NCBI GenBank assembly: GCA_963719985.1
Contig: CAVRDU010000005.1
Coordinates: 578,817 to 642,816, forward strand
DNA: 64,000 nucleotides
Direction: 5' to 3'
From: Candidatus Aminicenantes bacterium
Lineage (GTDB): Bacteria; Acidobacteriota; Aminicenantia; Aminicenantales; Saccharicenantaceae
Part shown: positions 8,064 through 64,000 of the stretch, piece after piece
Numbering within the stretch: the stretch's first letter is position 1
How the letters are laid out: each line of letters opens with the position of its first letter
Made by a program: the position numbers and the translations under genes
Notes under the pieces: generated by a model
The model's database searches: none
Told to the model about the DNA's origin: nothing
Seen by the model: only the letters and a program-made list of their open reading frames with translations

Positions 8064-8347
8064 GTCTCCTCTTCCTCGCCCTTTTCGGCCTTTTCGAGCG
8101 CTTGCTTGAACAGCTCGTCGGCTTTGTTGTGCTTCTCTTTCTGCAATTCGAACGTGGCGTCGAACTTGCGGTCGAACTCGCTCTGCCGTTGGTGCTCTTT
8201 GACCAGGAGGTCGTCGAGCGAGCCCTTGGCTTTCTTGCCCTTCTCGGAACGCAGCACCGACCGCGTCCCGCCGTCGATCCACAGGGTCGCCCCGCAGCAG
8301 GGACAGGCGACGGAGAAGACGTTCCCTTCGTCCTTCGTCTCTGACAT
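8060..8347 (-). CDS. Hypothetical zinc-ribbon protein with charged helical C-terminus
   Basis: MSETKDEGNVFSVACPCCGATLWIDGG... has a CPCC motif followed by a Lys/Glu-rich tail. Sits immediately downstream of the sigma-54 activator on the same strand. Confidence 0.45.
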   Translation of the reverse strand: MSETKDEGNVFSVACPCCGATLWIDGGTRSVLRSEKGKKAKGSLDDLLVKEHQRQSEFDRKFDATFELQKEKHNKADELFKQALEKAEKGEEEET

Positions 8348-28454: not shown

Positions 28455-28510
28455 GAGCCCGGCAGGATCGCTGGATCGGGCTCGAGGGGGAACACGCAAA
28501 GGGGGTATCT

Positions 28511-33340: not shown

Positions 33341-33347
33341 TCCTCGC

Positions 33348-43726: not shown

Positions 43727-46080
43727 TCGGCGCCGGACGGACCTCCATCGGCGGGCTCGCGGGGGCGCTCCTCTTCGCCCTCGCCCTCTCCGCTTCCGCC
43801 CCGGCCCAGACGTCGGCGCCGGCCGCCTCCCCGGACAAGCACCTCGTCTGGAACGGCGACCGGACGGTGCCCGTCCATCTCATCCCGCTCCGCGACGAGA
43901 ACGACGAGCTCATCGTCCCGACCGAGACGAACCCCCTCCCCTACTCCGCCCGCTTCACCTGCGGGCCGTGCCACGACTACGGGACGATCGCGGCGGGCTG
44001 GCACTTCGGGGCGATGACCGCGGCGGCGAGCGGGCGCCCCGGCGAGCCCTGGATCCGGTCCGACCCGAAGACCGGGACCGTCCTCCCTCTCTCTTACCGG
44101 AGATGGGACGGGACCTACGATCCGCGGGCCCTAGGTCTGAGCGCCTGGGACTTCACCCTGCTCTTCGGCCGCCACCTCGCCGGCGGCGGCCCGGCCGCCC
44201 CCCCGGAAGAAGAGACCCTGGCCCACCCCGAGGCGCGCTGGAGCGTTTCGGGCAAGGCCGAGATCAACTGCCTGGCCTGCCACAGCCGGTCGGGGCGCCA
44301 GGACCACTCCGAGTGGGCCAAGCAGGTCCTCCGCGAGAACCTCCGCTGGGCGGCCACGGCGGCCGGCGGCGTCGGCGAGGTCGGCGGCATGGCCTCGCGG
44401 CTCAAGGAGACGTGGGACATCGTCGACGGGCCCAACCTCGACGACCACGAGTGGGCCGTCGCTCCCTTCGTCAAGTACAGGACCGTCGACTTCGACTCCA
44501 AGCACCGCTTTTTCTTCGACCTCGACCACCGGCCCCCGGACGACCGCTGCCTGGCCTGCCACTCGGTCTCGGCCAAGGACGCGGCCCAATGGAGCGCCGA
44601 CGCCGACGTCCACTCGGCGGCCGGCCTGAAGTGCGCCGACTGCCACCGCAACGACCTCGGCCACGCCATGGTCCGGGGCTACGAGGGCGAGGCGGCCGAG
44701 ACCGGCGACCGGGCCGCGGAGGCGTTCACCTGCCGCGGCTGTCACCTGGGGGAGAACGCCGAGGGCAAGAGGACGGTCGTCCCCGGCCGCCTCGGCGCGC
44801 CCTATCCCAGGCACGTCGGCGTCCCGCTCGTCCACTTCAAGCGGCTTTCATGCACCGTCTGCCACTCCGGGCCGAAGCCGCGGGACGGCTTCACAAGGGT
44901 CAGGACGTCGCGGGCCAACCGGCTCGGCATCTACGGCGTCGCGACCTGGTCGACGGACGCGCCCGCGGTGTTCGAGCCGGTCTACAAGAAGGACTCCGCC
45001 CATCGCATCGCCCCGCACCGGCTGGTCTGGCCGGCCTTCTGGGCCAGGAAAACGGGCCCGACCATGACGCCGCTCCTGCCCGAGGTCGTCGAGGCCGCCG
45101 CGGGCGAGGTCCTCGGGCCCGAGGAGAGGATCTCGCTCGTCCTCGCCGCGCTGGGCCAGGTCATGGCTGAGGATGAAACGCCCGTGCTCGCTATCGGCAA
45201 GTTCGTCTTCGCGCCGAACGTCGACGGCGGCCTCGACGCGGCGACCGAAGCCGGCGCCTCCGCGGACCGCGCCGCGTTTTGGGGCATCCGCGAGGGCGGC
45301 GAGATCCGGCCTCTCGTTCCCGATTTCGATCCGGCGGCGGAAGTCAAGGACCCGGACATCGAGACGCGCTTTCAGGAGTTCCTCCAGGCCCTCGGGACGG
45401 TCGCCGGGCGCCCCGGCGAACCCGCGATCGTGGTCCGGAAGACGCTCTACCGTTTCGCCGGGGGTTACCTCGACATCGCCGAGGCGCCGGAGGAGCTAGC
45501 GGGGGCCGCCGGCCCGGGCTGGCTCGCGCGAGGAAAGCTCCTGCCCCTGGCCGCGGACTTCGACCTGCGCACCGTCGCCGCCAAGGCCGGGACGGAGCGG
45601 ACGCTGACCGAGGAGCAGGTCGGGCTCGTCCTCGAGGCGCTGGCCGCGACCGCCGGCGACGCCGAGATCGTCTACATCTCCGGCGGCCGGATGTTCCGGC
45701 GGACGAAAGAGGGAACCCTCGCCGCCGATAAGCACCCGGCCGCGGCTCCGGCGGCCTGGCCGCTGGCCCACGACGTCCGGCCGGCCCAGCAGTCGCTCGG
45801 CTGGAAGGGCTGCACGGACTGCCACAGCGGCGGCTCGAACTTCTTCTTCGCCGGGCTCGAGGGCCAGGGCCCCCTGCTGACGAAGAAGGTCGGCAAGCTC
45901 TCCGCCGCGTCGTTCATGGGTCTCGGCGGGCTCTTCCAGCGCTTCTTCGGCCTCTCGTTCGTCGTCCGGCCGGCGTTCAAGGTCGTCCTGGCCGTCTGCG
46001 CGATCGTCGCCGGGTCCCTTCTCTTCCTGGCCGGGCTCTTCGCCCTCGGCCGGGTGGCCGGGTTCCTGGAGAAGAGGTAA
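43723..46080 (+). CDS. Multiheme (7x CxxCH) c-type cytochrome with signal peptide and C-terminal transmembrane anchor
   Basis: Motifs CGPCH, CLACH (x2), CADCH, CRGCH, CTVCH, CTDCH. The ATG overlaps the upstream Gfo/Idh/MocA stop (ATGA). C-terminal hydrophobic helix VVLAVCAIVAGSLLFLAGLFALG. Confidence 0.75.
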   Translation: MIGAGRTSIGGLAGALLFALALSASAPAQTSAPAASPDKHLVWNGDRTVPVHLIPLRDENDELIVPTETNPLPYSARFTCGPCHDYGTIAAGWHFGAMTAAASGRPGEPWIRSDPKTGTVLPLSYRRWDGTYDPRALGLSAWDFTLLFGRHLAGGGPAAPPEEETLAHPEARWSVSGKAEINCLACHSRSGRQDHSEWAKQVLRENLRWAATAAGGVGEVGGMASRLKETWDIVDGPNLDDHEWAVAPFVKYRTVDFDSKHRFFFDLDHRPPDDRCLACHSVSAKDAAQWSADADVHSAAGLKCADCHRNDLGHAMVRGYEGEAAETGDRAAEAFTCRGCHLGENAEGKRTVVPGRLGAPYPRHVGVPLVHFKRLSCTVCHSGPKPRDGFTRVRTSRANRLGIYGVATWSTDAPAVFEPVYKKDSAHRIAPHRLVWPAFWARKTGPTMTPLLPEVVEAAAGEVLGPEERISLVLAALGQVMAEDETPVLAIGKFVFAPNVDGGLDAATEAGASADRAAFWGIREGGEIRPLVPDFDPAAEVKDPDIETRFQEFLQALGTVAGRPGEPAIVVRKTLYRFAGGYLDIAEAPEELAGAAGPGWLARGKLLPLAADFDLRTVAAKAGTERTLTEEQVGLVLEALAATAGDAEIVYISGGRMFRRTKEGTLAADKHPAAAPAAWPLAHDVRPAQQSLGWKGCTDCHSGGSNFFFAGLEGQGPLLTKKVGKLSAASFMGLGGLFQRFFGLSFVVRPAFKVVLAVCAIVAGSLLFLAGLFALGRVAGFLEKR

Positions 46081-51622: not shown

Positions 51623-52777
51623 ATGAGCATGAAGAAAGACTTGCCGGTCCTTGCTTTCTGTTGTCTGATCGCCACCGGGGACGTAGGCGCCAACGCCAAT
51701 GGGGCGCCTACTTCTGGATCCGTCCCGGCTCAGAAGATCGACATCCGGACCCAGGATGGCGTCATCGTCGTCCGCAATCCCAGGGCTCCCGTCCCTCAGC
51801 CCGGGGGGCCCTCCCAGCTCCTGCTGACCCAGGACCTTGTCCTCGGCAAGGATCCCGCCGGAGGTCCCGCGATCATCGCGGAGCTCCGTTCGGTCGGCGT
51901 CGACGACCAGGAGAACATCTGGACCCTCGATTGGGAGGACATCAAGGTCCGCGTCTTCGACAAGACGGGAAAACTCGTCAGCGAGTTCGGCAAAAAAGGC
52001 CAGGGGCCCCGGGAGTGGCAGAACCCCAGCCGCATGGTCGTCCTCCCCGGCGGGACGGCTGTCGTCCTCGACGTCAACAAGCTGACTTTCTATTCCCTCG
52101 ATGGGACCTGCCTCAAGGAGCTCTCGACGGCCCGGTCCCGCCTGGCCAGGTTCAGGTTCGACTCCCGAGGGAACATCTACGGGGACTCCTTCGATTTCGC
52201 CCCTCCGAAGCTGAAGCTAGGCCTGGTCAAGTACGATCCGTCGTTGGATCCCATCCAAACCCTCGCCGAGGTCGAAGAGTCCCTGCCGGCCGGGGGTGGA
52301 TTCAATGCGTTCACGACATTGCTCTACCATCACATCACGGCGGACGACCGCATCGTCTGGCTGGTGACATCGAAGTACGAGTTCCGCGTCCTCGACGCGC
52401 AGGGGAGCCTTATCCGGCGCATCATCAAGGCGTACGAGCCCATGAAGGTCACGGCCTCTGAAAAAAAGCGCCTGCTCGAGGAGCGCTATGGCAACTCGTT
52501 GGTCCGCGATCGGATCGTCTTTCCCGAAGTGTTCCCGCCCGTCTCGTATTTTATCGGCGACGCCGAGGGCCGGCTTTACGCCCAGACCTACGAGACCGAC
52601 GACAAGGGCTGGCTCCTTTATGACGTTTTCGACGCCGAGGGCCGATGCATCGCCAGGTTCTCCCTGCCCCGCGAGGAAATGCCGTTCGTCGTCAAGAAGG
52701 ACAAGCTCTACGCACTGATCATCGAGGACGAGGAAGGATTCCCGCTCGTCAAGCGCTATACCCTAGCCTGGAGGTAA
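51623..52777 (+). CDS. Six-bladed beta-propeller (NHL-like) repeat protein, lipoprotein-like; paralog of 28511..29698
   Basis: GGAGG then ATG (MSMKKDLPVLAFCCLIATG). Repeated FGKKGQGPREW-type blades. Divergent from the TetR gene. Confidence 0.5.
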   Translation: MSMKKDLPVLAFCCLIATGDVGANANGAPTSGSVPAQKIDIRTQDGVIVVRNPRAPVPQPGGPSQLLLTQDLVLGKDPAGGPAIIAELRSVGVDDQENIWTLDWEDIKVRVFDKTGKLVSEFGKKGQGPREWQNPSRMVVLPGGTAVVLDVNKLTFYSLDGTCLKELSTARSRLARFRFDSRGNIYGDSFDFAPPKLKLGLVKYDPSLDPIQTLAEVEESLPAGGGFNAFTTLLYHHITADDRIVWLVTSKYEFRVLDAQGSLIRRIIKAYEPMKVTASEKKRLLEERYGNSLVRDRIVFPEVFPPVSYFIGDAEGRLYAQTYETDDKGWLLYDVFDAEGRCIARFSLPREEMPFVVKKDKLYALIIEDEEGFPLVKRYTLAWR

Positions 52778-52825
52778 CTTCCTCCCTCGCGGCCGGGCGG
52801 CCCGGCCTCGGTCCTCCGGACGCCC

Positions 52826-54691
52826 CTACGAGACGATGATGATGGCCTCGCCGGCGACCGCGTCGAACTTGCAAACCTCGTAGCAGGAGCGGCACTTGAT
52901 GCACTTGCTCTGGTCGAGGTTGTGCGGCTGCGAGCGGGGGCCGGAGATGGCCTTGGTCGGGCAGACCTTGACGCACATCTGACAGCCCGTGCAGCGGTCG
53001 GGGATGATCCGGAAGGTGACCAGCTCGCGGCAGACGGTGGCCGGACACCTCTTGTCGACGACGTGGGCGATGAACTCCGACCGGAAATACCGGAGCGCCG
53101 TCAGCACCGGGATGGGGGCGGTCTGGCCAAGCCCGCAGAGCGAGCTCGCCCGGACGATCTCGCCGAGCCGCTCCAGCTTGTCCAGGTCCGCTTCCGTCCC
53201 CCCGCCCGTGGCGATCTTGTCGAGCAGGCCCACCATGTGGCGCGTGCCGACGCGGCAGGCCACGCACTTGCCGCACGATTCGCCCTGGACGAAGGACAGG
53301 AAGGTCCGGGCGGCGTCCACCATGCAGGTCTCCTCGTCCATGACCATGATGCCGCTCGAACCCATGATGCCCCCCGCTTCCGTGAGCGAGTCGAAGTCTA
53401 GCGGGGTCTCGATCTTTCCTCCCGGCAGGAACCCTCCCGACGGACCACCGATCTGGACGGCCTTGAGGCCCTTCTTGTCGGGGATGCCGCCGCCGATCTC
53501 GTAGATCAGCTTGGAGAGGGGGGTCCCCATGGGGACCTCGGCGACGCCGGAGTTGGAGACCTTGCCGGTGAGCGAGACGACCACGGTCCCCGGGCTTTTC
53601 TCCGTGCCGACGGAGGCGAACCAGGCCCCTCCCCGCGAGACGATCGGCGGGACAGAGGCCAGGGTCTTGATGTTGTCGACGACCGTCGGCTTCCCCCAGA
53701 GGCCGCTCGTCGCGGGAAAGGGCGGCCTGCTTCGGGGCATGCTCCGCGCGCCTTCGAGGGAGCTCAGGAGGGCCGTTTCCTCTCCGGACACGAACGTCCC
53801 CCCGCCCTGGAAGATCTCGACATCGAAGGCGAAACCCGTGCCCATGACCCGGGCCCCGAGATAGCCCTTCCCGTAGGCCTGATCGAGGGCCGCCTGGGCG
53901 CGCCGTGGCGGCCAGGGAGTACTCCGCGCGGCAATAGATGAAGCCCCGTTGGACGCGCCGACCGCGTAGCCGAGAAGGGCCAGCCCCTCGATGACCGAGT
54001 GCGGGTCCGCCTCGAGCAGGCTCCGGTCCATGAACGCGCCCGGCGAGCTCTCGTTGGCATTGCAGATGACGTATTTCTCGTCGCCGGGCTGACGGCGGCA
54101 GAGGTCCCACTTGACCCAGGTCGGGAACCCCGCCCCGCCGCGGCCACGCAGGCCCGCGCGCTTGACTTCGTCGACGACCCGCTCCGGCGTCATGGACGTC
54201 ACGGCCTTCTTCAGGCCGCCATACCCTCCCCGCTCCTCGGCGTCCTCGATCCGCTCGGGATTGACGAAGCCGCAGTTGCGCAGGATCAGCCGATACTGGT
54301 TCTTGTAAAAAACGATATCCTCGTAGCGGGGCACGGCCTCCTTGGTCACCGGGTGGCGGTAGAACAGGCGCTTGACCGGCTCCCCGCCGGGCCGGAGGGA
54401 CGCGGCGATGTCTTCCGCGTCGCCGGGCTTCACCTGGCAGTAGAAGATCCCCTCCGGCTCGACGACCACGATCGGCCCCTTCTGGCAGAAGCCGTGGCAG
54501 CCCGTGAAGCCGACCTTCACCCTGTCTGCGAGGTTCAGCCGGCCCACGGCGGCCTCGAGGCCGGCGCGGATCTCGGCCGACTTAGAGGAGGCGCAAGCCG
54601 TGCTTTCGCAGACAAGGATCCTCGTCGTCGCGGCGGCCGCCTTCGGCCGCGCCGCGGACTGCCCGGAGGCCTTCGGTCGACGGGCGCTCAT
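52826..54691 (-). CDS. NuoF-like NADH-binding flavoprotein subunit (HndC/HydB type: N-terminal 2Fe-2S thioredoxin-like domain, FMN/NADH domain, C-terminal 2x[4Fe-4S])
   Basis: Motifs GRGGAGFPT, GEETALLSSLEG, ESCGKC plus a C-terminal CxxCxxCxxxCP ferredoxin pair. The start MSARRPK overlaps the nuoE-like stop. A compensating frameshift pair lies near 53890 to 53920 (GFIYCRAEYSLAA in an alternate frame). Confidence 0.8.
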   Translation of the reverse strand: MSARRPKASGQSAARPKAAAATTRILVCESTACASSKSAEIRAGLEAAVGRLNLADRVKVGFTGCHGFCQKGPIVVVEPEGIFYCQVKPGDAEDIAASLRPGGEPVKRLFYRHPVTKEAVPRYEDIVFYKNQYRLILRNCGFVNPERIEDAEERGGYGGLKKAVTSMTPERVVDEVKRAGLRGRGGAGFPTWVKWDLCRRQPGDEKYVICNANESSPGAFMDRSLLEADPHSVIEGLALLGYAVGASNGASSIAARSTPWPPRRAQAALDQAYGKGYLGARVMGTGFAFDVEIFQGGGTFVSGEETALLSSLEGARSMPRSRPPFPATSGLWGKPTVVDNIKTLASVPPIVSRGGAWFASVGTEKSPGTVVVSLTGKVSNSGVAEVPMGTPLSKLIYEIGGGIPDKKGLKAVQIGGPSGGFLPGGKIETPLDFDSLTEAGGIMGSSGIMVMDEETCMVDAARTFLSFVQGESCGKCVACRVGTRHMVGLLDKIATGGGTEADLDKLERLGEIVRASSLCGLGQTAPIPVLTALRYFRSEFIAHVVDKRCPATVCRELVTFRIIPDRCTGCQMCVKVCPTKAISGPRSQPHNLDQSKCIKCRSCYEVCKFDAVAGEAIIIVS

Positions 54692-55158
54692 GAGGGCTTC
54701 TCCGGGGTGTCGAGGGATTCGACGAGCCGCATGAAGGTGACCCTGTTCATCCTCCCATGGACCTCGTTGTCGACGACGACGACGGGGGCGTTGGCGCAAC
54801 AGCCCAGGCATCCGACGGCTTCGAGACTGAGCTCGCGGTCCGGAGTCGTCTGGCCGTGGACGAGGTTCCTCTCGATCTTCATGGCTTCCATGAAGTTCGG
54901 CGCTCCGCCGACGTGGCAGGCGTTGCCCAGGCAGACCTGGATGTGGTGCCGCCCGGGCGGCGCGAAGCGGAACTGGGGGTAGAACGAGGCCACTCCGTAT
55001 ATCTCGTTCTCGGAGACGCGGAGCTCGCGGGAGATGCGCCGGACGGTCTCCCGCGAGAGATATCCTTCGGTCTCCTGGGTCCTTTTCAACAGGGGGAGGA
55101 GGCTTTTCCGCCGCTCCCGGGACCTCTGTCGAACGGTCTCGGGCAAGCTCACCGCCAT
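54688..55158 (-). CDS. NuoE-like [2Fe-2S] subunit (HndA/HydC type)
   Basis: 156 aa. The four-Cys thioredoxin-like motif spans CLGNACHVGG … CLGCCANAP. Confidence 0.85.
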   Translation of the reverse strand: MAVSLPETVRQRSRERRKSLLPLLKRTQETEGYLSRETVRRISRELRVSENEIYGVASFYPQFRFAPPGRHHIQVCLGNACHVGGAPNFMEAMKIERNLVHGQTTPDRELSLEAVGCLGCCANAPVVVVDNEVHGRMNRVTFMRLVESLDTPEKPS

Positions 55159-55182
55159 GTCGTCTCCTCTCAGGGGCCGGCC

Positions 55183-56502
55183 TCAGCGCGCGCGCCGATC
55201 GTGCTCCGGCCTCCTTCTGATATAGATGTCCCTCAGGGCGTCGATCCGGTCCTTGGAGAGGAACACGCACTCCCCGATCTGGTCCCGGCCGGCGGCGGCG
55301 TCCTCCGCGTGGCTCTTGCAGGTCGGGGCCCCGCACAGGCCGCAGTTCAGGAGCGGCAGGGCCCTCAGGAGCTCGGCCGCCCGCTTCTTCCGCTCGACCC
55401 GCTCCCGCAAGCCGACGCCCTTGCCCTCGGTGTTCCTGGGCCGGAGCGGGGCCCGCAGCGCGAACTCCTCCTGCGCGAACCGCCGGTCGACCTCGCTCAG
55501 GAACGCGGGCCTGGGCTCCGACCGGGCGGCGACCAGGCGGAGGTACTTGCTGCGGGCCACATAGATGTTCTCCACGGTCAGGTTGCCGCCGATGCAGGCG
55601 CCCTGACAGGCATGGCACTCCAGGAACTCGACGTTCCGGATCTTGCCCTTCTCGACGTCGTTGAGGACCTTGATGATGTCCGAGAGGCCCTGGAGCGGCA
55701 GGTAGTGCTCGCGCGACAGGCTGGGGAACTCACCCTCGGGCGAGCCGGAGAAATACCACCCGGCCGTCCCGCCCTCGGGCCTCGCGCCGTCGGCGTTCGG
55801 CGGGCCCTTGCGCATGATGGCCAGCAGATCGTTGTAGATCTGCGAGATGCCGACGGCGCCGTCGAGGTGGCTGCCCGCGCCCTCCGCGGGGTGGAGGATG
55901 GAGATCGTCTTGGCCTGGCAGGGCGCGATGTAGATGGCCGCGACCTCCTCCGGCTCGACGCCGACCGCCCGGGAATAGTGGCGCTTGAGCTCCCGGCCGG
56001 CGACCTCCCGGGGGGCCTCGATCCGGATGAGCTGGTCGACCATCGTGGGGTAGACGACCTGCACCAGGCGGACGACGACGGGACAGGAGTTGGAGATCAA
56101 GGGGAAGGGCCCGGACCACTTCTGCACGTAGTCGCGGATGGCCCGGTCGATCAGCTCGATGTCGACGGCGTATTCCCAGACCGCGTCGAAGCCGAGCGCC
56201 AGGAGGGCCTGGCCGACCTGGGCGGGGGTGTCCTTCAGGCCGAACTGGGTGAAGAGGGCGGGCGAGGCCACCGCCACCTTGAACTTGAAGCGGTCGAGCT
56301 CGTCGAAGGTGATGGTCGTCGCCGCGATGGCCCCCGGGGCGCACACGCCGAGGCAGGAGCCGCAGTCGATGCAGAGCTCCGGTATGACCGTCGCCCGGCC
56401 CTTCTTGACCCGGACGGCGTGCGTCGGGCAGGCCCGCATGCAGGCCATGCACCCGGTGCACTTCTCCGGGACGATCCGGAAGCCGTGCGTCAGCTCAGTC
56501 AT
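55183..56502 (-). CDS. [FeFe]-hydrogenase-like protein with degenerate H-cluster motifs (HydS-type putative sensory hydrogenase, no PAS domain)
   Basis: N-terminal 2x[4Fe-4S] domain. Motif L1 reads SNSCP instead of TSCCP; L2 reads APCQAK; L3 reads ECHACQGACIGG. A C-terminal extra 4-Cys motif (NCGLCGAPTC…GEC) is present. Confidence 0.7.
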   Translation of the reverse strand: MTELTHGFRIVPEKCTGCMACMRACPTHAVRVKKGRATVIPELCIDCGSCLGVCAPGAIAATTITFDELDRFKFKVAVASPALFTQFGLKDTPAQVGQALLALGFDAVWEYAVDIELIDRAIRDYVQKWSGPFPLISNSCPVVVRLVQVVYPTMVDQLIRIEAPREVAGRELKRHYSRAVGVEPEEVAAIYIAPCQAKTISILHPAEGAGSHLDGAVGISQIYNDLLAIMRKGPPNADGARPEGGTAGWYFSGSPEGEFPSLSREHYLPLQGLSDIIKVLNDVEKGKIRNVEFLECHACQGACIGGNLTVENIYVARSKYLRLVAARSEPRPAFLSEVDRRFAQEEFALRAPLRPRNTEGKGVGLRERVERKKRAAELLRALPLLNCGLCGAPTCKSHAEDAAAGRDQIGECVFLSKDRIDALRDIYIRRRPEHDRRAR

Positions 56503-56932
56503 GGGCGTCCAGCCTGATCTTGGCGAAGACCGCGGTCCCCTTCCCGACCTCGGTCTCGACCCTGAGGTCGTCGGAGTTCTTCCGCATGTTCGGCAGGCCC
56601 ATGCCGAAGCCGAAGCCGAGCTCGCGCATCTCGTCCGAGGCCGTCGAGTAGCCCTCCTGGAACGCGAGCTCGAGGTCCGGGATCCCCGGCCCCTCGTCCC
56701 GGACCTCCAGGTTGACCTCGTCCTCCGACAGGATGAAGGTCAGCGTCCCCTGCCGGGCGTACATGACCACGTTCATCTCGGCCTCGAAGGCGACGACCAC
56801 GATCCGTCTCAGCGAGGACGCCTCGATGCCGAGGTCCCGGAGAGTCGTCTTGATCTCCCCCGAGACCTCGCCGGCGGTGTCGAAGTTCCCGCCCTGGATC
56901 GCGTAGCTCTCCCGCATCAGCTCGGCCGCCAT
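56495..56932 (-). CDS. Histidine-kinase-like ATPase (anti-sigma regulatory factor / serine kinase fold)
   Basis: The start MAAELMRE is in frame inside the over-extended track ORF. GHKL-like motifs (NVVMYARQG, RDEGPGIPD, GFGFGMGLP). Confidence 0.7.
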   Translation of the reverse strand: MAAELMRESYAIQGGNFDTAGEVSGEIKTTLRDLGIEASSLRRIVVVAFEAEMNVVMYARQGTLTFILSEDEVNLEVRDEGPGIPDLELAFQEGYSTASDEMRELGFGFGMGLPNMRKNSDDLRVETEVGKGTAVFAKIRLDAHD

Positions 56933-57276
56933 CAGGACACGCCCTTCAATCCCTTGTTGTAGAGGACCGCGCAGATGTCGAACATGACCATGCGGGTCGC
57001 CAGGACGGGGATCCCCTTCTTCTTGGCGAACTCGACGACCCGAGCGTCGGGGCGCTTGCCGCGGCAGAAGACGATCGCGCTGACGCCGGCGATGTCGGCC
57101 GTCCGGACGGCCTGGATGTTCGTCAGGCCGGTGATCATCAGCTCCCGGGACCTGGCGAAGGCCAGGATCTCGCTCATGCCGTCGGAGGCCACGACGAACT
57201 GGACGTCCAAGCCGAGGTCGTCGCCCTCCGTGAGGACCTCGCACTGAAGGATGTCCCGGATCTCGTCCAGCGTCAT
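56932..57276 (-). CDS. DRTGG domain protein
   Basis: 114 aa (MTLDEIRDILQCEVLTEGDDL…MITGLTNIQAVRTA…). Start and stop are overlapped by the neighbouring genes. Confidence 0.7.
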   Translation of the reverse strand: MTLDEIRDILQCEVLTEGDDLGLDVQFVVASDGMSEILAFARSRELMITGLTNIQAVRTADIAGVSAIVFCRGKRPDARVVEFAKKKGIPVLATRMVMFDICAVLYNKGLKGVS

Positions 57277-57277
57277 G

Positions 57278-58703
57278 TCATTCCTGGCCCGTCAGATACT
57301 TGTGGATGGAGGCGGCGGCGATCCGGCCGTCCCCCATCGCGCTGATGACGGTGGCCGCCCCTCGGACGACGTCCCCGCCGGCCCAGACCCGGGCCCTGGA
57401 CGTCAGGGCGGTCGGCGGGATCGGTCGCGAGCCCGCCCTTCTTGCTGAGCTCCAGCCCCTGCGTCGTCATCGGGATGAGGGGATTGGGGCTGTTGCCGAT
57501 GGCGATGACCACGGCGTCGGCGGGCATGAGGAACTTCGAGCCCTTGACGGGGACCGGCCGGCGGCGGCCCGAGTCGTCCGGCTCGCCGAGCTCCATCTCG
57601 CAGGCACTCCATCTCCTTGAGCCAGCCGTGCTCGTCGCCGATGAGCCGGACGGGCAGCGTGAGGAGGTCGAAGATGACCCCCTCCTCCTCGGCGTTCTCG
57701 ACCTCCTCGAGGCGGGCGGGCAGCTCCGTCCGGCCGCGGCGGTAGACGAGGTGGACCTCGTCGGCGCCGAGGCGCAGGGCCGTGCGGGCGGAGTCCATGG
57801 CCACGTTGCCGCCGCCGACGACGGCCACGCGGGCGGGCTGCTTGACCGGCGTGTCGTACTCGGGGAACCGGTAGCCCTTCATCAGGTTGCACCCGGGTGA
57901 GGTACTCGTTGGCCGAGTAGACGCCGTTGAGGTTCTCGCCCGGGATCTCCATGAACCAGGGCAGCCCGGCGCCCGCGCCGACGAAGACGGCGTCGAACTC
58001 CTCGAGGAGCTCGTCGACCGTCCGGGTCTTGCCGACGATGTAAGTCCATCTCGATCCTGACCCCCAGCGCTCTGCACGTAGTCCACCTCGCGGCTGACGA
58101 TGCTCTTGGGCAGCCGGAACTCGGGGATGCCGTAGATCAGGACGCCCCCCGCACTCGTGCAGGGCCTCGAAGATCGTCACGTCGTGGCCGAGGATGAGCG
58201 AGGTCGTTGGCCACGGTGACGCCGGCCGGCCCCGCGCCGACGATGGCCACCTTCTTGCCCGTCTTCGGGGCCAGCTTCGGGATCTCGATCTTGCCCCGTT
58301 CGGCCTCCCAGTCGGCCAGGAAGCGCTCCAGCCGGCCGATGGCGACGGGCTCGCCCTTCTTGCCCAGGACGCACATCTTCTCGCACTGCTCCTCCTGGGG
58401 GCAGACGCGGCCGCAGATCGCCGGCAGGGCGTTGGTCTCCTTGATCTTCCGGATCCCCGGCGGCGAAGTCGCCCTCGACGATGCACTGGATGAAGCCGGG
58501 GATGTCGATGCCGACGGGACAGCCCTTGTTGCACAGCGCGGCTTCTTGCAGTCCAGGCAGCGCGAGGCCTCCTCCCGCGCCGTCGCGACGGGATAGCCGA
58601 GGGCGACCTCGTCGAAGTTCTTGACCCGCTCGTAGGGGTCCTGCTTCGGCATGGGCCGCCGCAGGAGGTCCAGCTTCTTCTTGGTCGTCTGTTCGTCAGC
58701 CAC
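57278..58703 (-). CDS. GltD/SfrB/NfnB-like NAD(P)H-dependent FAD/FeS oxidoreductase (glutamate synthase small-subunit family), at least 4 frameshifts
   Basis: GTG start after GGAG (…TTKKKLDLLRRPMPKQDPYERVKNFDEVALGY). Fragments in three frames include CLDCKKPRC, EEQCEKMCVLGKKGEPVAIGRLERF, KKVAIVGAGPAG, RVAVVGGGNVAMDSAR and the C-terminal …AMGDGRIAAASIHKYLTGQE. Confidence 0.6.
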
Positions 58704-58740
58704 TTTTCGCTCCCTTCTCCCGCGAGGCGCGCGCCCCGGC

Positions 58741-59578
58741 TCAGAAGTGCGAGGCGCAGCTGCTCCGGCGCAGCGGATCGACCTCTTCGGGATTGTAGCT
58801 CTTGCGCCGGGCCAGGAACTCTCCCAGTCGATCTCGTGCCCGTCGAAGTCGGGCCCGTCGACGCAGGCGAACTTCATCTTCCCGCCGACGGACAGCCGGC
58901 AGACGCCGCACATCCCCGTCCCGTCGATCATGATCGGGTTCATGTTGACGATGGTCTTCCAGCCCAGCGGCCGGGTCAGCTCCGACGTCCGCATCATCAG
59001 GAACGTGCAGCCGTTGACGATGATCAGGTCGGGGGCGATCCCGGCCGCCGCCAGCATGTCCGGCATGTCGCCGATGTGCCCCTTCTGGCCCTTCGTCCCG
59101 TCCCGCGTGGCGACGAACAGCCCGTTCGGACGTCGCGGCCAGCTTGTCCTCCCAGTAGAGCAGAAAGGCTCCGCGGGCCTCGAGGAACGTATAGACCGTG
59201 TTGCCGGCCTCCTTGAGGGCCCGGGCGACGGGGTAGATGCGAGCCGATGCCGTAGCACCCGCCGACGCACAGGACCGTCCCGAAGCTCTCGATCTCGGCG
59301 TGCTCTTGCCGAGCGGCCCGGCGTAGGTCGGAATGGTCTGGCCGGGCTTCAGGCGGGCCAGCTTGGCGGTCGAGGCGCCGACCTGCATGAAGATCGACGT
59401 CACCGTCCCGCTCTCCCTGTCCCAGTCCGCGACCGAGAGGGGGATCCGCTCGCCCTGGTCGTCGGGGCGGACGATGACGAACTGGCCCGGCTTGACGGAC
59501 CGGGCCACGGCCGGCGCCTCGAACGGTGAGCTCGTGGAGGTTCGGGACGATCATGCGCCGCTCGATCACCTCATACAT
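58741..59578 (-). CDS. NfnA/SudB/PyrK-like FAD-binding electron-transfer subunit with C-terminal [2Fe-2S], at least 3 frameshifts
   Basis: MYEVIERRMIVPNLHELTV start. Fragments include VKPGQFVIVRPDDQGERIPLSVAD, YPVARALKEAGNTVYTFLEARG, TGMCGVCRLSVGGKMKFACVDGPDFDGHEIDW. Confidence 0.55.
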
Positions 59579-59613
59579 TCCAGCCTCCCTCCAGCGCCCG
59601 AAGGGGCCCGCGC

Positions 59614-62098
59614 TCAAGCTCCATGACGCGCCACCTTGACGCGGGCCGGGTTCTCCCCGAGGCGGACGAGCGGCCGCAGCCCGCTCCGGCCTTCGAGACC
59701 TCCCCAGACGACCGGCCGCGCGAGGTACACGACTCCCCGGGGGCACTCCTCGTCCGCCCTGACGGCGCCGACGCCGCCCGGCCGGCCGCCGTCGGGCGAC
59801 AGGGCCGCCAGGTCGCCGGCGCGGAGGCCCAGGGCTTCGAGGTCCTGGGGGTTCATCCTCAGTCCTTCTTCGAGGGCCAGCTCTTTGAGCCCCCCGACCT
59901 TGGACGAAAGGTCGACGCCCCGATGACGGTAGCCGGAGGGGGCCGCGACCAGCAGGAACTCCCCCTCACCGGCGGTCGCGGGCTCCGACCTCGATCCCGC
60001 GGCGGCGCCGTCCGCCGAAAGCCGGCGCGGCCTCCGGTTGATCCCGGCCGGGAATCCGGGGACCGACCGGCGGATGTCCTTGAAGACGTCCCGGGGCGAC
60101 TTGTAGTTCATCAGGTGACAACCCATGGCGTTGGCGAGGTCGGAGAAGATCCTCCAATCCGGCCGCATGAACCCGTTCTGGGGGCTCTCCGGCTGGTCCT
60201 CGATCCTGACGACCTCCTGGACGCGGCCCTCGAGATTGACGAGGGTCCCGCCGGCCTCCGCGAAGGACGCGGCCGGGAGGAAGACGTCGACCGGGAACGG
60301 CGGAAGGTAGGTGTCCTGGACGATCAGGAGATCGCAGTCGGGCCTTTCCGGGAACGGGACGTCCCCGACGAGATAGAGGACCTTGGGCCGCGGCGAGGCG
60401 GCGAGGAGGCCGTCGAGCCCGGCCGGGACCTTGTCCTGATAGAGCCCCAGCTCGAGGGCCCCGCGAGCGTTGGCCCCGAAATAGAGAGGGATGACATTCG
60501 TGTTCTTGCGCTTCGCGAGCGTCCTCAGGCCTTCGACGAGCGCGTCGGTCGCTCCGTAGTGGAACGCTTGGGGCCCGACGATGACGGCCAGGCGGTCGCT
60601 GGAAGCGAGGACCTTCGCGGCCCTGTCGAGGGAGGACGCGTCGACGCGGGCGTCCTTGGCCGCGGCCGCGAGAGAGGTCTTCCCGTCCTTCCCGGCCGAC
60701 GCCAGCGCTCTCAGGAGCGACCCCTCCCGGCCGGGAAGGGGGCGCAGCCAGTCGTCGGTGTAGCGGGCCAGGTTGCTGTCCCTGGGATCGATGGTGACCA
60801 GCCGCGCGCCGGCGTTGATGGCCTGCCTGACCTTCGTCCCGACCACGGAGAAGTCGAAGCGGCTGTCGAGCCCGACGGCCAGGATCGTGTCGGCCCGGAG
60901 GATGTCCTTGATGGAGACCGGCAGGGAGAACAGCCACGTCCAGAGGCCCGGGCCCCCGGGAAGCTCCAGCCGGGCCGTGGAGTCGACGTTCTCCGAGCCC
61001 AGGCAATCGCGGACGAACTTCCGGGCGGCGAACAGGCTCTCGTTGGTGAGGTCGGGCGAGACGAGCATGGTCATGCCGCCGGGACCGGCCGCTTGGAGCT
61101 CGCCGGCCACTTTGGTCAGGGCCTCCTCCCAGGCCACCTCCCGGAAGAACTCGCCTTTCTTGAGCATGGGCTTCCGCGCCCGGCTGAAATGGTGCGTCGT
61201 CTCGGGAAGGCCGAAGCGGCCCTTGACGCAGAGCTGCCCGTCGTTGACCTCCGGGTCCAGGTGGGCCTTGACCCGGGTCAGTCGGCCGTTCTTGTGGTGG
61301 ACCTCGATCTGGCAGCCGACGGCGCAGATCGGGCAGGTCGAGACGTGGACCCCGTCCGACTTCCCCTCCCACTTCGAGGCCTTGTCCGAGAGGGCGCCCG
61401 TCGGGCAGACGTCGACGCAGGCGCCGCAGAACTCGCAGCCCGCTTCGATGTGGCTCCGGCCGAAGGCCGGCCCGATCTTCGTCTTGGAGCCGCGCTGGGT
61501 GAAGGCCAGGACCGCGGTGCCGCGGACCTCCTGGCACATCCGGACGCACCGGCCGCAGAGGATGCAGATGTTGTAGTCCCGGTCGTAGAAGGGGTCGTCG
61601 TGCTCCGGCTCGAAGCCGTGATACAGGATGGGGTAGTCGAAGTCCGCCGAGGCCGACGCGGTCGATGACGTCCTGCAGCTCGCACTGGCCGTCGTTGGGG
61701 CAGAAGCGGCAGCCCGTCGTCACGCCCGTCTTCCGGATGGTCCCCTGGTAGGTTCGGCAGGCCTCGCTCTCGTCGCAGATGAGGCAGCTCGAGGGGTGCT
61801 CGCTCAAAATGAGCTTGAGCATCTCCTGGCGGAACGCCCTGAGCGCGTCCGTCTCCGTCCGGACCTTCATCCCCTCCTCGGCGGCCGTGGTGCAGGACAG
61901 GGGATAGCCGCGCAGCCCCTCGATCTCCACCATGCACAGCCGGCAGCCGCCGAACGGCGACAGGTCCTTGTGGGAGCACAGGGAGGGGATGGAGACGCCG
62001 TTGATCTCGGCCGCGCGGAGGACGGTCACGCCTTCGGGGAAGGGGACGGTCCGCCCGTCGATCTCCATGGTGAAAGTGCGAGGTTCGCGGAGAGCCAT
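59614..62098 (-). CDS. NuoG/SfrA-like subunit: N-terminal 2Fe-2S and 4Fe-4S domains plus molybdopterin-oxidoreductase (MopB) domain with Glu at the formate-dehydrogenase Cys/Sec position; one frameshift (~61655)
   Basis: MEIDGRTVPFPEGVTVLRAAEINGVSIPSLCSH… (2Fe-2S), CVRMCQEV…CEFCGACVDVCPTGAL, and the MopB Fe-S motif CPICAVGCQIEVHH…VNDGQLCVKGRFG. The aligned VDNCARxU/CH block reads VDSTARLELPGG. Confidence 0.7.
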
Positions 62099-62141
62099 GG
62101 TTCACCCTCGTCGGTTGGGATGCGGGGTCACGGGCGCGATC

Positions 62142-62468
62142 CTATCGGACCCCGAGCTCGTAGAGGCTTTTGGCCAGCGTCCAGGTGTCCTTGTCGTACC
62201 CGAGAAGCCGGATCTTGGCCCGGTTGGCCAGGGCGACGACGTCTTCGGGAGGGACCTTGCCCCGGGCGTAGACGACGGCGGAGACATCGACCAGGTTGGC
62301 CGCGGCGATCAGGTTCTTGTGGGTCTGCAGGGTGACGAGGAGGTTCCCTTCCTTGATCCCGATGATGTCGCTGACCATGTCGGAGATGTAGACGCCCCGG
62401 ATCTCCTTGTCGCTCTGCTCGTTGAATGTCTTGAGGCCCAGCCGTTGGACGAGTTCGGAAGTGTTCAT
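62142..62468 (-). CDS. DRTGG domain protein (second copy)
   Basis: 108 aa (MNTSELVQRLGLKTF…LLVTLQTHKNLIAAANLVDVSAVVYARGK). Confidence 0.7.
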   Translation of the reverse strand: MNTSELVQRLGLKTFNEQSDKEIRGVYISDMVSDIIGIKEGNLLVTLQTHKNLIAAANLVDVSAVVYARGKVPPEDVVALANRAKIRLLGYDKDTWTLAKSLYELGVR

Positions 62469-62496
62469 GTGGATCCTATCCCTTCATTGTTTATTA

Positions 62497-63024
62497 TTAA
62501 TAGAGCTCCGTCAGGCCGACGTCCGCGAGGACGATGCCCTGGCACGAATCCACTGACCGCCGGAGCCGGCAGGGGACGACCTTGATCCGCCGCGGCTCCC
62601 GCGGCCCTCCCTGATAGTATTCGTTGAGGGCCCGGATGCCCGCCTCCGGGACGCATGTCTGGGACGCGTGCGAGGTGTCCGCGCACAGGGCGACATAGAC
62701 CCACGCCCTCTCCCCCTGTTCGAGCTCGGCGGCCTTGGAGACGCCGCACTCCGGGTCGCAGCGAACGCAGAGCATCAGGGCCATGAGCTCCTTCAGCGGC
62801 ACGACCTGGCCGCACGCGTCGCACCGGAGGTCGAACTTGGTGGCCTGGGCGCTGCCGAGGTAGTTCCAGAAATGGTCCCCCTCGTGGTAGGACTCGATGG
62901 GCGGGACAGGCTCTCCCGAGAAAAAGGAGATCCGGTTCAGGCAGTGATAGCACCCCTCGGTGACCAGGTATCCGTCGCGGATATCGGCCATCGCCCACTT
63001 ATGACGGCAGACGGACTCGTTCAT
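62497..63024 (-). CDS. Hypothetical Cys-rich (multiple CxxC) protein at head of redox operon
   Basis: 175 aa with motifs C6, CYHC, CDAC, CVRCDPEC, C…C. No family recognised. Confidence 0.45.
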   Translation of the reverse strand: MNESVCRHKWAMADIRDGYLVTEGCYHCLNRISFFSGEPVPPIESYHEGDHFWNYLGSAQATKFDLRCDACGQVVPLKELMALMLCVRCDPECGVSKAAELEQGERAWVYVALCADTSHASQTCVPEAGIRALNEYYQGGPREPRRIKVVPCRLRRSVDSCQGIVLADVGLTELY

Positions 63025-63220
63025 GGGGACCGCACCTCTCTAGGGAAATCCCGGGTCCGGAAGGCGGTCGAAGCGAGACCGGCCGCGACAGACCTGTCCA
63101 CCGCCTTCATTTTCCCCTGTCATACGTCATCAGACCTCGTTCTCGACTCGGCCTGGTCGTTACGTTTGGGCGCACTATACCATCGGGCCCGAATCCCTGT
63201 CAACGATTTTTGGCCGGCGG

Positions 63221-64000
63221 TTATCGAGCTCTGACGAGCAAGATGAAGGCGGCGGCCAGGGCCAGGGCGAGGGAGCCGGCGACGATCTTCCAGAGAGGGG
63301 CCCGCCGCCGCTTCTCGTCCTCACGGATCTCCATGACCGAGCCCAGGAGGAAGCCCGCGGCGAAGCCGCCGGCGTGGGCGAAGTTGTCGGCCCGGACGAA
63401 GAGCCCGAAGACGAAAGCGTAGAGGGCCCAGCGGAGCATGAAGGCCCGGATGTCCCGGCCCCGGGCGCTCCCCTCGCGGCGGTAGTAGGCGACGGCGAAC
63501 CCGATCAGGCCGAAGATGGCCCCCGAGGCGCCGGCCGAGACGACCCGCGCGTGGAGAAGATAGGAGGCCGCCGATCCGCCCAGCCCCGAGAGCATGAACA
63601 ACGAAAAATACCGGGCCGAGCCGATCTCGGCCTCGAGGAAGCTCGAGACGCTGAGAAGGGCGTAGAGGTTGAAGAGGACGTGGATGACCCCGATGTGGAC
63701 GAAGACGCACGTCAGGAGCCTCCACCACTCCCCCGCGGCCACGAGGCGCGTTTCCAGGGCGCCGGCCCGTACGAGCGACTCGAGGCCCGGAGAGAGGAGC
63801 GCCCTTCCGCCCGAGGACGTCACCTGGAGGAGGAAGCCGATCCCGATGAGGGCGGTGAGCAGGGCGGTCACCGGGGAGACGCCGGGCATGATCAGGCCGA
63901 AGACCCTGTAGAGGAACTGCCCCGCCGCGGACGGCAGCCGGGCCCCGCAGATGGCGCACCGCTTATCGCCGGCCCCGGCCAGGGCGCCGCATTTCCGGCA
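63221..64000 (-). CDS. Rhomboid family intramembrane serine protease with N-terminal zinc-ribbon; 5' end beyond window
   Basis: GASGAIFG (GxSG) and AHAGG (His) motifs with multiple TM helices. The in-frame upstream sequence CRKCGALAGAGDKRCAICGARL continues to the window edge. Confidence 0.75.
   Translation of the reverse strand, partial: CRKCGALAGAGDKRCAICGARLPSAAGQFLYRVFGLIMPGVSPVTALLTALIGIGFLLQVTSSGGRALLSPGLESLVRAGALETRLVAAGEWWRLLTCVFVHIGVIHVLFNLYALLSVSSFLEAEIGSARYFSLFMLSGLGGSAASYLLHARVVSAGASGAIFGLIGFAVAYYRREGSARGRDIRAFMLRWALYAFVFGLFVRADNFAHAGGFAAGFLLGSVMEIREDEKRRRAPLWKIVAGSLALALAAAFILLVRAR

Follow-up and report, generated by a model that had tools for sequence, protein, structure and literature searches.

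A conserved operon joining predicted Bfu-type NuoEF–MopB and NfnAB genes to an optional HydS-like cassette in Aminicenantes and other bacteria

The DNA examined here is a 64-kb stretch (about 68% G+C; hereafter the window) of contig CAVRDU010000005.1 from a Candidatus Aminicenantes bacterium, and the subject of this report is a ten-gene operon on its minus strand, at positions 52826–63024. The operon brings together genes for NuoE- and NuoF-like subunits, a NuoG-like MopB subunit, an NfnA/NfnB pair and five further proteins, one of which resembles the sensory [FeFe]-hydrogenase HydS. A sequence-only reading of the window had placed ten co-directional genes with tiny or overlapping junctions between 63024 and 52826. 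Open reading frame (ORF) and Pfam analysis confirmed these genes and their coordinates, with Pfam domains assigned to nine of the ten. The junctions range from an 8-nucleotide (nt) overlap to a 43-nt gap. From the upstream end, the features are as follows (protein lengths in amino acids, aa):

63174..63203, minus strand: promoter-like site with TTGACA, an 18-nt spacer and a TG-extended TATAGT, about 150 nt upstream of the Cys-rich gene
62497..63024, minus strand: Cys-rich protein, 175 aa, no Pfam match, first gene of the operon
62142..62468, minus strand: DRTGG-domain protein 1, 108 aa (Pfam PF07085, E = 1.2e-5)
59614..62098, minus strand: MopB, a NuoG-like or BfuA-type subunit, about 827 aa (Fer2_4, NADH-G_4Fe-4S_3, Molybdop_Fe4S4, Molybdopterin)
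58741..59578, minus strand: NfnA/NfnS (PyrK-type) subunit, 277 aa (Pfam DHODB_Fe-S_bind; flavin adenine dinucleotide (FAD) and [2Fe-2S])
57278..58703, minus strand: NfnB/NfnL (GltD-type) subunit, 471 aa (Fer4_20, Pyr_redox_2; two [4Fe-4S], FAD, NADPH site)
56932..57276, minus strand: DRTGG-domain protein 2, 114 aa (Pfam PF07085, E = 1.5e-9)
56495..56932, minus strand: stand-alone, SpoIIAB/RsbW-like HATPase, 145 aa (Pfam HATPase_c, HATPase_c_2), sharing 1 nt with DRTGG2 and 8 nt with HydS
55183..56502, minus strand: HydS-like protein, 439 aa (Pfam Fer4, Fe_hyd_lg_C, PF04060)
54688..55158, minus strand: NuoE/HydC/BfuC-type [2Fe-2S] subunit, 156 aa (Pfam 2Fe-2S_thioredx, E = 3e-42)
52826..54691, minus strand: NuoF/HydB/BfuB-type subunit, 620 aa (Complex1_51K, SLBB, NADH_4Fe-4S, 2x Fer4)

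The reading frames of MopB, nfnA, nfnB and nuoF are broken in the window; these genes are described in corrected form, and the frameshifts are taken up below.

To place the operon in a wider context, a pattern scan was carried out on one genome per GTDB species. It found 191 genomes with a relative of MopB, and 80 loci were retrieved and mapped by tblastn with the ten operon proteins, threshold failures being resolved by eye. Locus L001, a metagenome contig from the Joint Genome Institute (JGI), is 92% identical to the window in nucleotide sequence, has all ten genes intact and shares its flanks, with a rhomboid gene on one side and TetR and beta-lactamase genes on the other. The same ten genes are intact in L002 within unrelated flanks, where MopB is 66–68% identical to that of the window. 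A chance origin of the gene set can be excluded, because it is intact in L001 and L002 and occurs in dozens of other loci. The cassette genes are also present in the complete genomes OY970261.1, OY970208.1, CP070744.1 and CP070839.1. Across the 80 loci, the core described below spans at least ten phyla, with representatives in Aminicenantes, WOR-3, Krumholzibacteria, Planctomycetota, Anaerolineae, Thermoleophilia/Actinomycetota, Zixibacteria, Ignavibacteria, Holophagales/Thermoanaerobaculia and Syntrophorhabdales. Four layouts were recognised, written here with C for the Cys-rich gene, d and D for DRTGG1 and DRTGG2, G for MopB, a and b for NfnA and NfnB, K for the HATPase, S for HydS, and E and F for NuoE and NuoF (MAG, metagenome-assembled genome):

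Layout I: C-d-G-a-b-D-K-S-E-F, in the window and some Aminicenantes
Layout II: C-d-E-F-G-a-b-D-K-S, in Aminicenantes, WOR-3, Planctomycetota, Anaerolineae and Thermoleophilia
Layout III: C-d-D-K-S-E-F-G-a-b, in Zixibacteria, Ignavibacteria, Holophagales and Thermoanaerobaculia
Layout IV: E-F-G-a-b only, in Actinomycetota, deltaproteobacteria and two unclassified MAGs

Wherever the contig extends far enough, NfnA comes directly after MopB (72/72) and NfnB follows NfnA (67/67), and NuoF is present (44/44). Layout IV comprises eight loci in which the core lies alone, with 3–7 kb of unrelated genes on both sides; in two Syntrophorhabdales loci (L077 and L079) this core is found again, with shorter flanks. 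The five accessory genes are shifted in position or missing across the 80 loci. The unit of selection is thus NuoE–NuoF together with MopB–NfnA–NfnB, as the linkage of this core is unbroken while the remaining cassette is movable or missing. That cassette is an optional add-on specific to this operon. DRTGG1 is paired with the Cys-rich gene in all cases, DRTGG2, HATPase and HydS always form one block, and the Cys-rich gene is found solely at the head of this operon. All 71 metagenome loci chosen via the Cys-rich protein run on into the same operon, and the full ten-gene set is present in every one of the 21 Cys-rich loci with at least 9.3 kb of downstream sequence.

The earlier reading had also noted that no catalytic HydA or FdhA is encoded nearby, and this holds well beyond the immediate neighbourhood. 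The whole 64-kb window yielded no gene for HydA, FdhA or HydEFG, and in the 80 related genomes no group-A HydA or Cys/Sec-type FdhA appeared up to 10 kb from the cluster. Additional hydrogenase-type hits near those clusters were limited to HydS-like sensor genes in L078 and L079, and the other extra hits were a short ferredoxin-like one in L059 and a weak MopB one, at 25% identity, in L080. Two Phycisphaerae MAGs (L034 and L070) carry an extra GltD-like gene, about 35% identical to NfnB, between nuoF and MopB, which may be another way to attach an NADPH module to the core.

The NuoF-like subunit has the features that separate bifurcating BfuB/HydB proteins from plain NuoF (PMC9304861; PMC12018979). 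In addition to the flavin mononucleotide (FMN) domain and the NuoF [4Fe-4S] cluster, it has an N-terminal thioredoxin-like 2Fe-2S motif, a GGPSG loop and two C-terminal [4Fe-4S] clusters. The loop is present in 63/63 sequences and the cysteines of both C-terminal clusters in 62–63/63. The N-terminal motif, which reads CxxxxC...CxxxC in the corrected window protein, takes one of two forms in family members, seen in 17 and 46 sequences. The gene-level hallmarks of the Bfu family (Schut et al., 2022) are all found here, namely the BfuB dicluster, its N-terminal [2Fe-2S] and GGPSG, a NuoE-like BfuC, and in BfuA a 2Fe-2S ferredoxin domain with a 4Fe-4S dicluster domain (Fer2_4, NADH-G_4Fe-4S_3 and Fer4). 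By these motifs, the NuoEF–MopB trio is a Bfu-type core lacking a third-substrate site, and bifurcating activity is predicted for it.

MopB, NfnA and NfnB of type I loci (such as L013/L014) and of type II loci (such as L019) are similarly close to those of the window (64–67%, about 80% and about 80% identity, respectively). NuoE and NuoF are 61–80% identical to the window proteins in type I and only 45–53% in type II, and the two layouts also differ in the N-terminal 2Fe-2S motif of NuoF. This suggests that the NuoEF pair was swapped as a module, perhaps with the D-K-S block.

MopB belongs to a family of proteins of about 825–840 aa (1383 hits among 8000 candidates scored) from Aminicenantes, Acidobacteriota, WOR-3 and Krumholzibacteria. 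It consists of an N-terminal [2Fe-2S] motif, a His/Cys cluster motif, two [4Fe-4S] motifs, the MopB [4Fe-4S] and a NuoG-like MopB domain; no H-domain is present. All of its Fe–S ligands are invariant in 76 sequences. The N-terminal half has FdsA-type formate dehydrogenases (FDHs) as its top PDB matches, and the C-terminal half aligns best to the cofactor-free NuoG/Nqo3/NDUFS1 proteins. The subunit scores under all NCBIfam cut-offs, including those for NuoG (307 against 470) and the FDH alpha subunit (TIGR01591, 180 against 666). The active-site segment ARVCHSPTG of Rhodobacter FdsA (6tg9_A), which holds Cys386-His387, aligns with STARLELPGG in MopB, and the region of the FDH active-site Arg is unalignable between the two. 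The sequence-only reading had pointed to a Glu where FDHs have Cys or Sec. This is correct for the window protein and invariant among its close relatives, but the wider family is variable: among the 76 MopB sequences, the position is E in 34, F in 17, A in 5, Y in 5, S in 4 and G in 4, with other residues in the remainder and never Cys. On these alignments, the MopB domain is predicted to be pterin-free. Homologues nevertheless carry the automatic names ‘formate dehydrogenase alpha subunit’ or ‘YjgC’.

Two candidate signs of a metal cofactor in MopB were considered and rejected. The invariant Glu was discarded as a Mo ligand, not being conserved outside Aminicenantes-type sequences. Motifs resembling those that bind molybdopterin guanine dinucleotide (DPR, QD and LPA..E..GT..N.EGRVQ) were set aside as evidence for a pterin because they persist in cofactor-free NuoG/NDUFS1.

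A further feature of MopB is an extra insert with three invariant cysteines (C114, C130 and C133), which duplicates the HxxxCxxCxxxxxC motif. Within residues 98–143 the His/Cys motif is doubled, as H101-C105-C108-C114 followed by C130-C133-C139, and this is invariant in 76/76 sequences. The short linker between the two copies is the place at which an NfnL domain is inserted in NfnA of Caldicellulosiruptor saccharolyticus (Csac), a fused protein discussed below. At that point MopB has a linker of only about 15 residues, and the GltD-type protein is encoded by its own 471-aa gene.

The GltD-like and PyrK-like genes, previously described as ‘Nfn/Sfr-like’, are near-canonical NfnAB on both scores and motifs, which sharpens the first half of that description. 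NfnB is 58% identical to both the Thermotoga maritima (4ylf_B, E = 7e-170) and the Pyrococcus furiosus (5jca_L, E = 2e-160) proteins, and it scores 592 against a TIGR01316 cut-off of 472. The Glu-containing CPQE cluster motif, the equivalent of Arg R201 and the NADPH motifs are all present, and CPQE..C, PEFRLPK, GGGN and YRR are each kept in at least 64/66 sequences. NCBIfam would name this protein ‘NADPH-dependent glutamate synthase’. For NfnA, the best matches are 5jca_S (P. furiosus NfnI-S, E = 3e-75) and 4ylf_A (E = 2e-65), with a score of 330 for NF004862 (cut-off 220). The Asp and three Cys ligands of its [2Fe-2S] cluster (DGTGMCGxC...FAC) are kept in 71/71 sequences.

NfnA also bears a striking signature. 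Core-associated NfnA has GGCYGIG in place of GGGVG(I/V)A and NGC in place of (V/I)GP in 71/71 sequences, and C107, Y108, E132, R157, H166 and C189 are invariant in all 71. The canonical GGGVG and GP residues are retained in a second, non-core nfnA on contig L078. In the FNR-like fold, the signature residues would be expected to fall on loops lining the pyridine-nucleotide cleft. The NAD(H) site of NfnA has probably been remodelled.

The cassette includes the HydS-like protein, which has N-terminal 2x[4Fe-4S], an H-domain and a C-terminal Cx2Cx4Cx16C motif, without a PAS domain. Its H-domain motifs read SNSCP, APCQAK and ECHACQGAC, where group A has TSCCPxW, MPCxxK and ExMxCxxGCxxG. It had been described as a degenerate hydrogenase, a description that fits the surroundings of the cofactor and fails for its ligands. 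The four H-cluster cysteines are kept in 51–53/53 sequences and the Lys of MPCxxK in 50/53, all five residues being present in the window protein, and the read set ERR12037370 contains an identical HydS gene. Replaced there are the proton-relay Cys299 (Ser in the window, never Cys in 53 sequences), Met353 (Ala) and Met497 (His); across the 53 sequences the Met353 position holds Thr in 26, Ala in 25 and Ser in 2. Hydrogenase NCBIfam scores do not exceed 100, with cut-offs of at least 406. Judged by architecture alone, the protein would be of the group D (M2e) type; the search for homologues returned close relatives only (at least 65% identity), which are named ‘RnfB’ automatically. In an uncultured deltaproteobacterium (CAWIGL010000002.1; L078, 15221–21085), a HydS-like domain is fused to HisKA and HATPase_c directly after a core-only cluster, followed downstream by a response-regulator/PAS hybrid kinase and then a second, canonical-looking nfnAB pair.

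The remaining cassette proteins have fewer recognisable relatives. The HATPase has the anti-sigma F factor/serine kinase SpoIIAB as its best PDB match (E = 7e-10) and scores 48.5 against the TIGR01925 cut-off of 135; neither a STAS partner nor a sigma factor is encoded in the operon. No significant PDB relative was found for the DRTGG proteins. The Cys-rich protein has 11 invariant cysteines (C25, C28, C68, C71, C86, C89, C93, C114, C124, C152 and C161) and two invariant histidines (H51 and H119), which suggest a metal or Fe–S protein. Fold searches with it gave no match, and its family is very small, amounting to 75 clusters (50% identity) in a set of 1.84 billion proteins. By analogy with TamHydS, a putative sensory hydrogenase, the cassette most likely senses H2 or redox state. 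It would probably act post-translationally, as none of the ten operon genes encodes a DNA-binding protein. The H2-responsive control envisaged by the sequence-only reading is a tentative proposal, and the cassette is dispensable in several lineages.

Our preferred interpretation, held with moderate confidence, is that the core encodes an unfused, five-subunit relative of the Nfn-Bfu enzymes, that the cassette is a sensor of H2 or redox state and that the frameshifts in the window are artefacts. The core is read in this way because NfnAB is the only candidate substrate module that always accompanies NuoEF–MopB, and because the Stn/NfnABC enzymes hold the same domains in fused form, with MopB matching Csac NfnA around the insertion. 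The general idea of a bifurcating NAD(P)H/ferredoxin assembly accompanied by a sensor-type hydrogenase had already been put forward for this locus, and the invariant synteny of the core and the mobility of the cassette strengthen it. The product would be a soluble enzyme composed of BfuC (NuoE-like), BfuB (NuoF-like), BfuA without a MopB active site, and the NfnA/NfnB pair. As predicted from the cofactor motifs, NADP(H) would react at the FAD of NfnB, and electrons would pass from the NfnB [4Fe-4S] clusters along the Fe–S chain of BfuA to the FMN/Fe–S bifurcation site of BfuBC, where they would be coupled to NAD(H) and ferredoxin. The net, reversible reaction would be NADH + reduced ferredoxin + 2 NADP+ <-> NAD+ + oxidised ferredoxin + 2 NADPH. 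NfnA, with its NAD-site loops remodelled, may have been retained as part of the recruited NfnAB module. The cassette of Cys-rich protein, two DRTGG proteins, SpoIIAB-like ATPase and HydS would sense H2 or redox state and modulate the enzyme post-translationally.

Several points weigh against this interpretation. The binding of NfnAB to the BfuABC module is itself a prediction from sequence, and NfnAB keeps every feature needed for stand-alone bifurcation, such that two co-transcribed enzymes are possible. We know of no precedent for the FAD of a canonical bifurcating NfnB working in series with a second bifurcation site. In Stn/NfnABC the NfnL-like FAD is non-bifurcating, whereas the NfnB FAD here has canonical bifurcating features. 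The NfnA signature was compared with just three canonical sequences (P. furiosus, T. maritima and the L078 paralogue). As for the cassette, HydEFG maturases were not found within the 64-kb window, and the sensing function proposed for group D HydS proteins lacks proof even in the case of TamHydS (PMC13104023).

The first of these points leads to the rival that survives best, in which the operon encodes two independent, co-transcribed enzymes: a stand-alone NfnAB and a NuoEF–MopB enzyme with an unidentified or external third substrate. The proximity of NfnA and NfnB to the crystallised T. maritima and P. furiosus enzymes, their scores above the NCBIfam cut-offs and the presence of all cofactor ligands with the bifurcation-linked Arg and Glu are all as this rival would have them, and a similar neighbourhood in Margulisbacteria/Saganbacteria has been read as an FDH with a separate Nfn (PMC6349859). 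It accounts less well for an adjacency of MopB, NfnA and NfnB that is unbroken in at least ten phyla and four operon layouts, for a NuoEF–MopB trio with no recognisable third-substrate site, and for a fixed NAD-loop signature of NfnA that is missing from the paralogue on the same contig in L078. We consider it unlikely, though worth keeping in view.

A bolder version of the five-subunit proposal is also tentative, and about as doubtful. It holds that NuoE, NuoF, MopB, NfnA and NfnB assemble into a single machine in which both the NfnB FAD and the FMN/Fe–S site of BfuBC are competent for bifurcation. NfnA would no longer bind NAD, and its remodelled Cys/Tyr/Glu/Arg/His/Cys pocket would serve as a new metal or contact site wiring NfnAB to the three-Cys insert of BfuA. 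Were this so, the transhydrogenase would have a different NADH:ferredoxin:NADPH stoichiometry, and such a two-centre machine could have stood midway in evolution between NfnSL and fused Nfn-Bfu. The other cassette proteins (the Cys-rich one, DRTGG1, DRTGG2 and the SpoIIAB-like ATPase) would then be the long-sought signalling partners of HydS in group D and would modulate the enzyme after translation.

It is quite improbable that the HydS-like protein is catalytic and that the operon specifies a bifurcating hydrogenase of the Hnd-like kind, H2-dependent and NADP-linked, which feeds Bfu and Nfn modules. The conservation of the four H-cluster cysteines would allow it, and TamHydS, a protein of like architecture, catalyses a reversible, if slow, interconversion of H+ and H2 (PMC8163306). 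Eight loci nevertheless have the core with no gene for HydS, and the HydS domain of L078 is part of a histidine-kinase fusion. Furthermore, the proton-relay position 299 never holds Cys, the gene invariably shows translational coupling to that of the SpoIIAB-like ATPase, the protein falls far under every hydrogenase family cut-off, and HydEFG is missing from the window.

The frameshifts raise the question of whether the operon is a decaying pseudogene cluster in this organism. The sequence-only reading had estimated roughly ten; against L001, 17 frame-breaking coding indels were counted, of which 16 are insertions and one is a deletion. One falls in MopB (an inserted base near 61646), five in nfnA (59519, 59296, 59239, 59126 and 58822), nine in nfnB (all inserted-base events) and two in nuoF (2 nt at 53954 and 1 nt at 53905, together +3 nt, scrambling 16 codons). 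Fourteen of the 17 are concentrated within 2.1 kb of nfnA and nfnB while neighbouring genes are intact, a pattern that real decay could produce. The insertions are, however, of one or two bases each, mostly a single G or C at non-homopolymer sites, and their removal gives stop-free ORFs whose products are 93% identical to those of L001. The corrected genes have dN/dS values of 0.24 (nfnA) and 0.22 (nfnB), within the range of the other eight operon genes (0.09–0.31). It is because of this extreme insertion bias and an intact signal of purifying selection that we argue for assembly or sequencing errors, and real decay is in our view highly unlikely. The source contig, at 1.7 Mb, is taken to come from a long-read assembly. 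Hints of similar errors come from two plus-strand ORFs elsewhere in the window (6602–8344 and 27278–29698), in which the frame of third-position G+C (GC3) switches internally. Their Pfam matches are partial (Na_H_antiporter positions 1–112 of 303, and the N-terminal domain only of GFO_IDH_MocA), and they too may contain assembly indels.

Least credible of all is a NAD(P)-linked or bifurcating FDH, which is favoured by the JGI names of several homologues and the FdsA-type matches of the N-terminal half, and opposed by the replacement of Cys386-His387, with Cys at that position in none of the 76 sequences, the absence of an in-frame TGA from intact ORFs, the TIGR01591 score, a C-terminal half nearer to NuoG/Nqo3, and the finding that Stn, with a comparable domain, showed no formate activity (PMC7483475).

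The region upstream of the operon has some conserved features of its own. A consensus scan returned two promoter-like sites against 0.6 expected, and the one described above matches 11 of the 12 consensus positions, with both hexamers kept in L001, L003, L008 and L076. The leader between this site and the Cys-rich gene (63025–63173, minus strand; about 150 nt) is kept in the same four loci and missing from more distant ones. It contains a hairpin, CAGGCC...GGTCTG, whose stem has a compensatory A>G / T>C change in L076, followed by ‘GATGA...GGGGAAAATGA’, readable as an upstream ORF of seven codons. The leader has no Rfam match, and an Rfam scan of 52400–63400 returned nothing at E <= 0.1. Control by Rex was considered and is unsupported: a search of the window for TTGTGAA-N4-TTCACAA gave a single match with three mismatches, far from the locus. 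Elsewhere in the window, an intact gene for a bacterial alpha-2-macroglobulin of 1854 aa adjoins a PBP1C-type transglycosylase/transpeptidase gene (30575–38912, minus strand), a gene pairing that is already known, and an 887-aa ORF at 43417–46080 (plus strand) has matches to multihaem cytochromes of the c7/c3 type.

These findings bear on how such loci are annotated and classified. The labels formate dehydrogenase, RnfB and glutamate synthase, given to these genes in many MAGs of Aminicenantes, Zixibacteria and Planctomycetota, would distort metabolic reconstructions. BfuABC with NfnSL is a possible extra Bfu class, one not found where Schut et al. (2022) set out their classification. The cassette genes are concrete partner candidates for group D sensory hydrogenases, and finding the interaction partners of TamHydS has been named as a key open step (PMC13104023).

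TamHydS is itself the nearest comparison for the cassette, being a putative sensory [FeFe]-hydrogenase of group D (M2e) (PMC8163306). Both proteins have 2x[4Fe-4S], a four-Cys H-domain that has lost Cys299, and Cx2Cx4Cx16C, with no PAS domain and an adjoining stand-alone HATPase gene, which in the case of TamHydS encodes a histidine-kinase-like ATPase. TamHydS is encoded upstream of a genuine HydABC, however, whereas HydA is absent from this operon, and the window protein has Ala at Met353 where the group D definition has Ser or Thr.

For the core, several known systems come into consideration. To our knowledge, SfrAB of Geobacter sulfurreducens has no NuoE/NuoF or NfnA partners. Compared by description only, it is similar in setting a pterin-less MopB-type subunit beside a separate GltD-type NADPH subunit (PMC7483475). 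Margulisbacteria/Saganbacteria have fdhA and nuoE/F-like genes near Nfn genes (PMC6349859), a region likened to ours by gene description only, in that MopB, NuoE-like, NuoF-like and Nfn genes occur together; its authors read it as a real Mo/W FDH, possibly docked to an Ehr complex, with an independent Nfn (Matheus Carnevali et al., 2019). The NfnAB/NfnSL enzymes (4YLF, and 5JCA for NfnI) share two subunits, all cofactor ligands, the R201 equivalent and the NADPH motifs with the pair described here. Unlike stand-alone NfnAB, these genes are always embedded in a Bfu-type operon next to MopB, and NfnA has invariant GGCYG, NGC, E132, R157 and H166 as against the canonical GGGVG and GP.

The closest comparison is with the Stn/NfnABC (Nfn-Bfu) enzymes characterised in Sporomusa ovata, C. 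saccharolyticus and Thermococcus sibiricus, in which NuoE-like and NuoF-like subunits are joined by a third subunit that unites, in one fused chain, an N-terminal 2Fe-2S domain, an NfnL/GltD-like domain and an Fdh/NuoG-like domain without a pterin (PMC7483475; PMC10482914; PMC11829005). The sequence-only reading knew of no characterised system of exactly this composition. That holds for the separate genes: literature searches for this gene set returned no paper describing it as a complex, a BfuABC core with separate NfnSL is undescribed in the Bfu classification (PMC9304861), the Stn/NfnABC papers, a review of Nfn (PMC6405883) and a survey of Bfu enzymes in Hydrogenedentota (PMC11406978), and the supplement of the Bfu paper does not mention the phyla concerned here. 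It does not hold for the domains, since Stn/NfnABC has the same set in fused form.

The differences between the two are nevertheless clear. In Type 1 Nfn-Bfu the NfnL domain lies inside BfuA in one polypeptide of about 960–1200 aa, whereas here BfuA has 827 aa and NfnB is separate. Type 1 is a heterotrimer without NfnS, whereas NfnA/NfnS is always found between MopB and NfnB in our loci. The operon NfnB is 58% identical to the T. maritima and P. furiosus proteins and matches fused NfnL domains far more weakly, at E values of about 1e-91 to 1e-98 as against 1e-170 for NfnB. Its proximal-cluster motif is the NfnB-type CPQE, in contrast to the Lys-ligated proximal cluster of Stn, and the five-gene sensor cassette goes unmentioned in the Stn/NfnABC papers. 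Against these stand the shared NuoE-like subunit, the NuoF-like subunit with extra Fe–S clusters and GGPSG, the pterin-free Fdh/NuoG-like domain and the GltD/NfnL-type module. MopB aligns to Csac NfnA (9bov_A) both before and after the NfnL insertion of the latter, and the motif CQGYxGxI right before the insertion point is common to both. Nfn-Bfu and NfnSL have been presented as alternatives, and a conserved operon of nfnAB with a catalytically empty BfuABC fits poorly with a view of the two as unrelated, largely mutually exclusive routes (PMC7483475; PMC12018979). The operon is a plausible evolutionary bridge to the fused enzyme.

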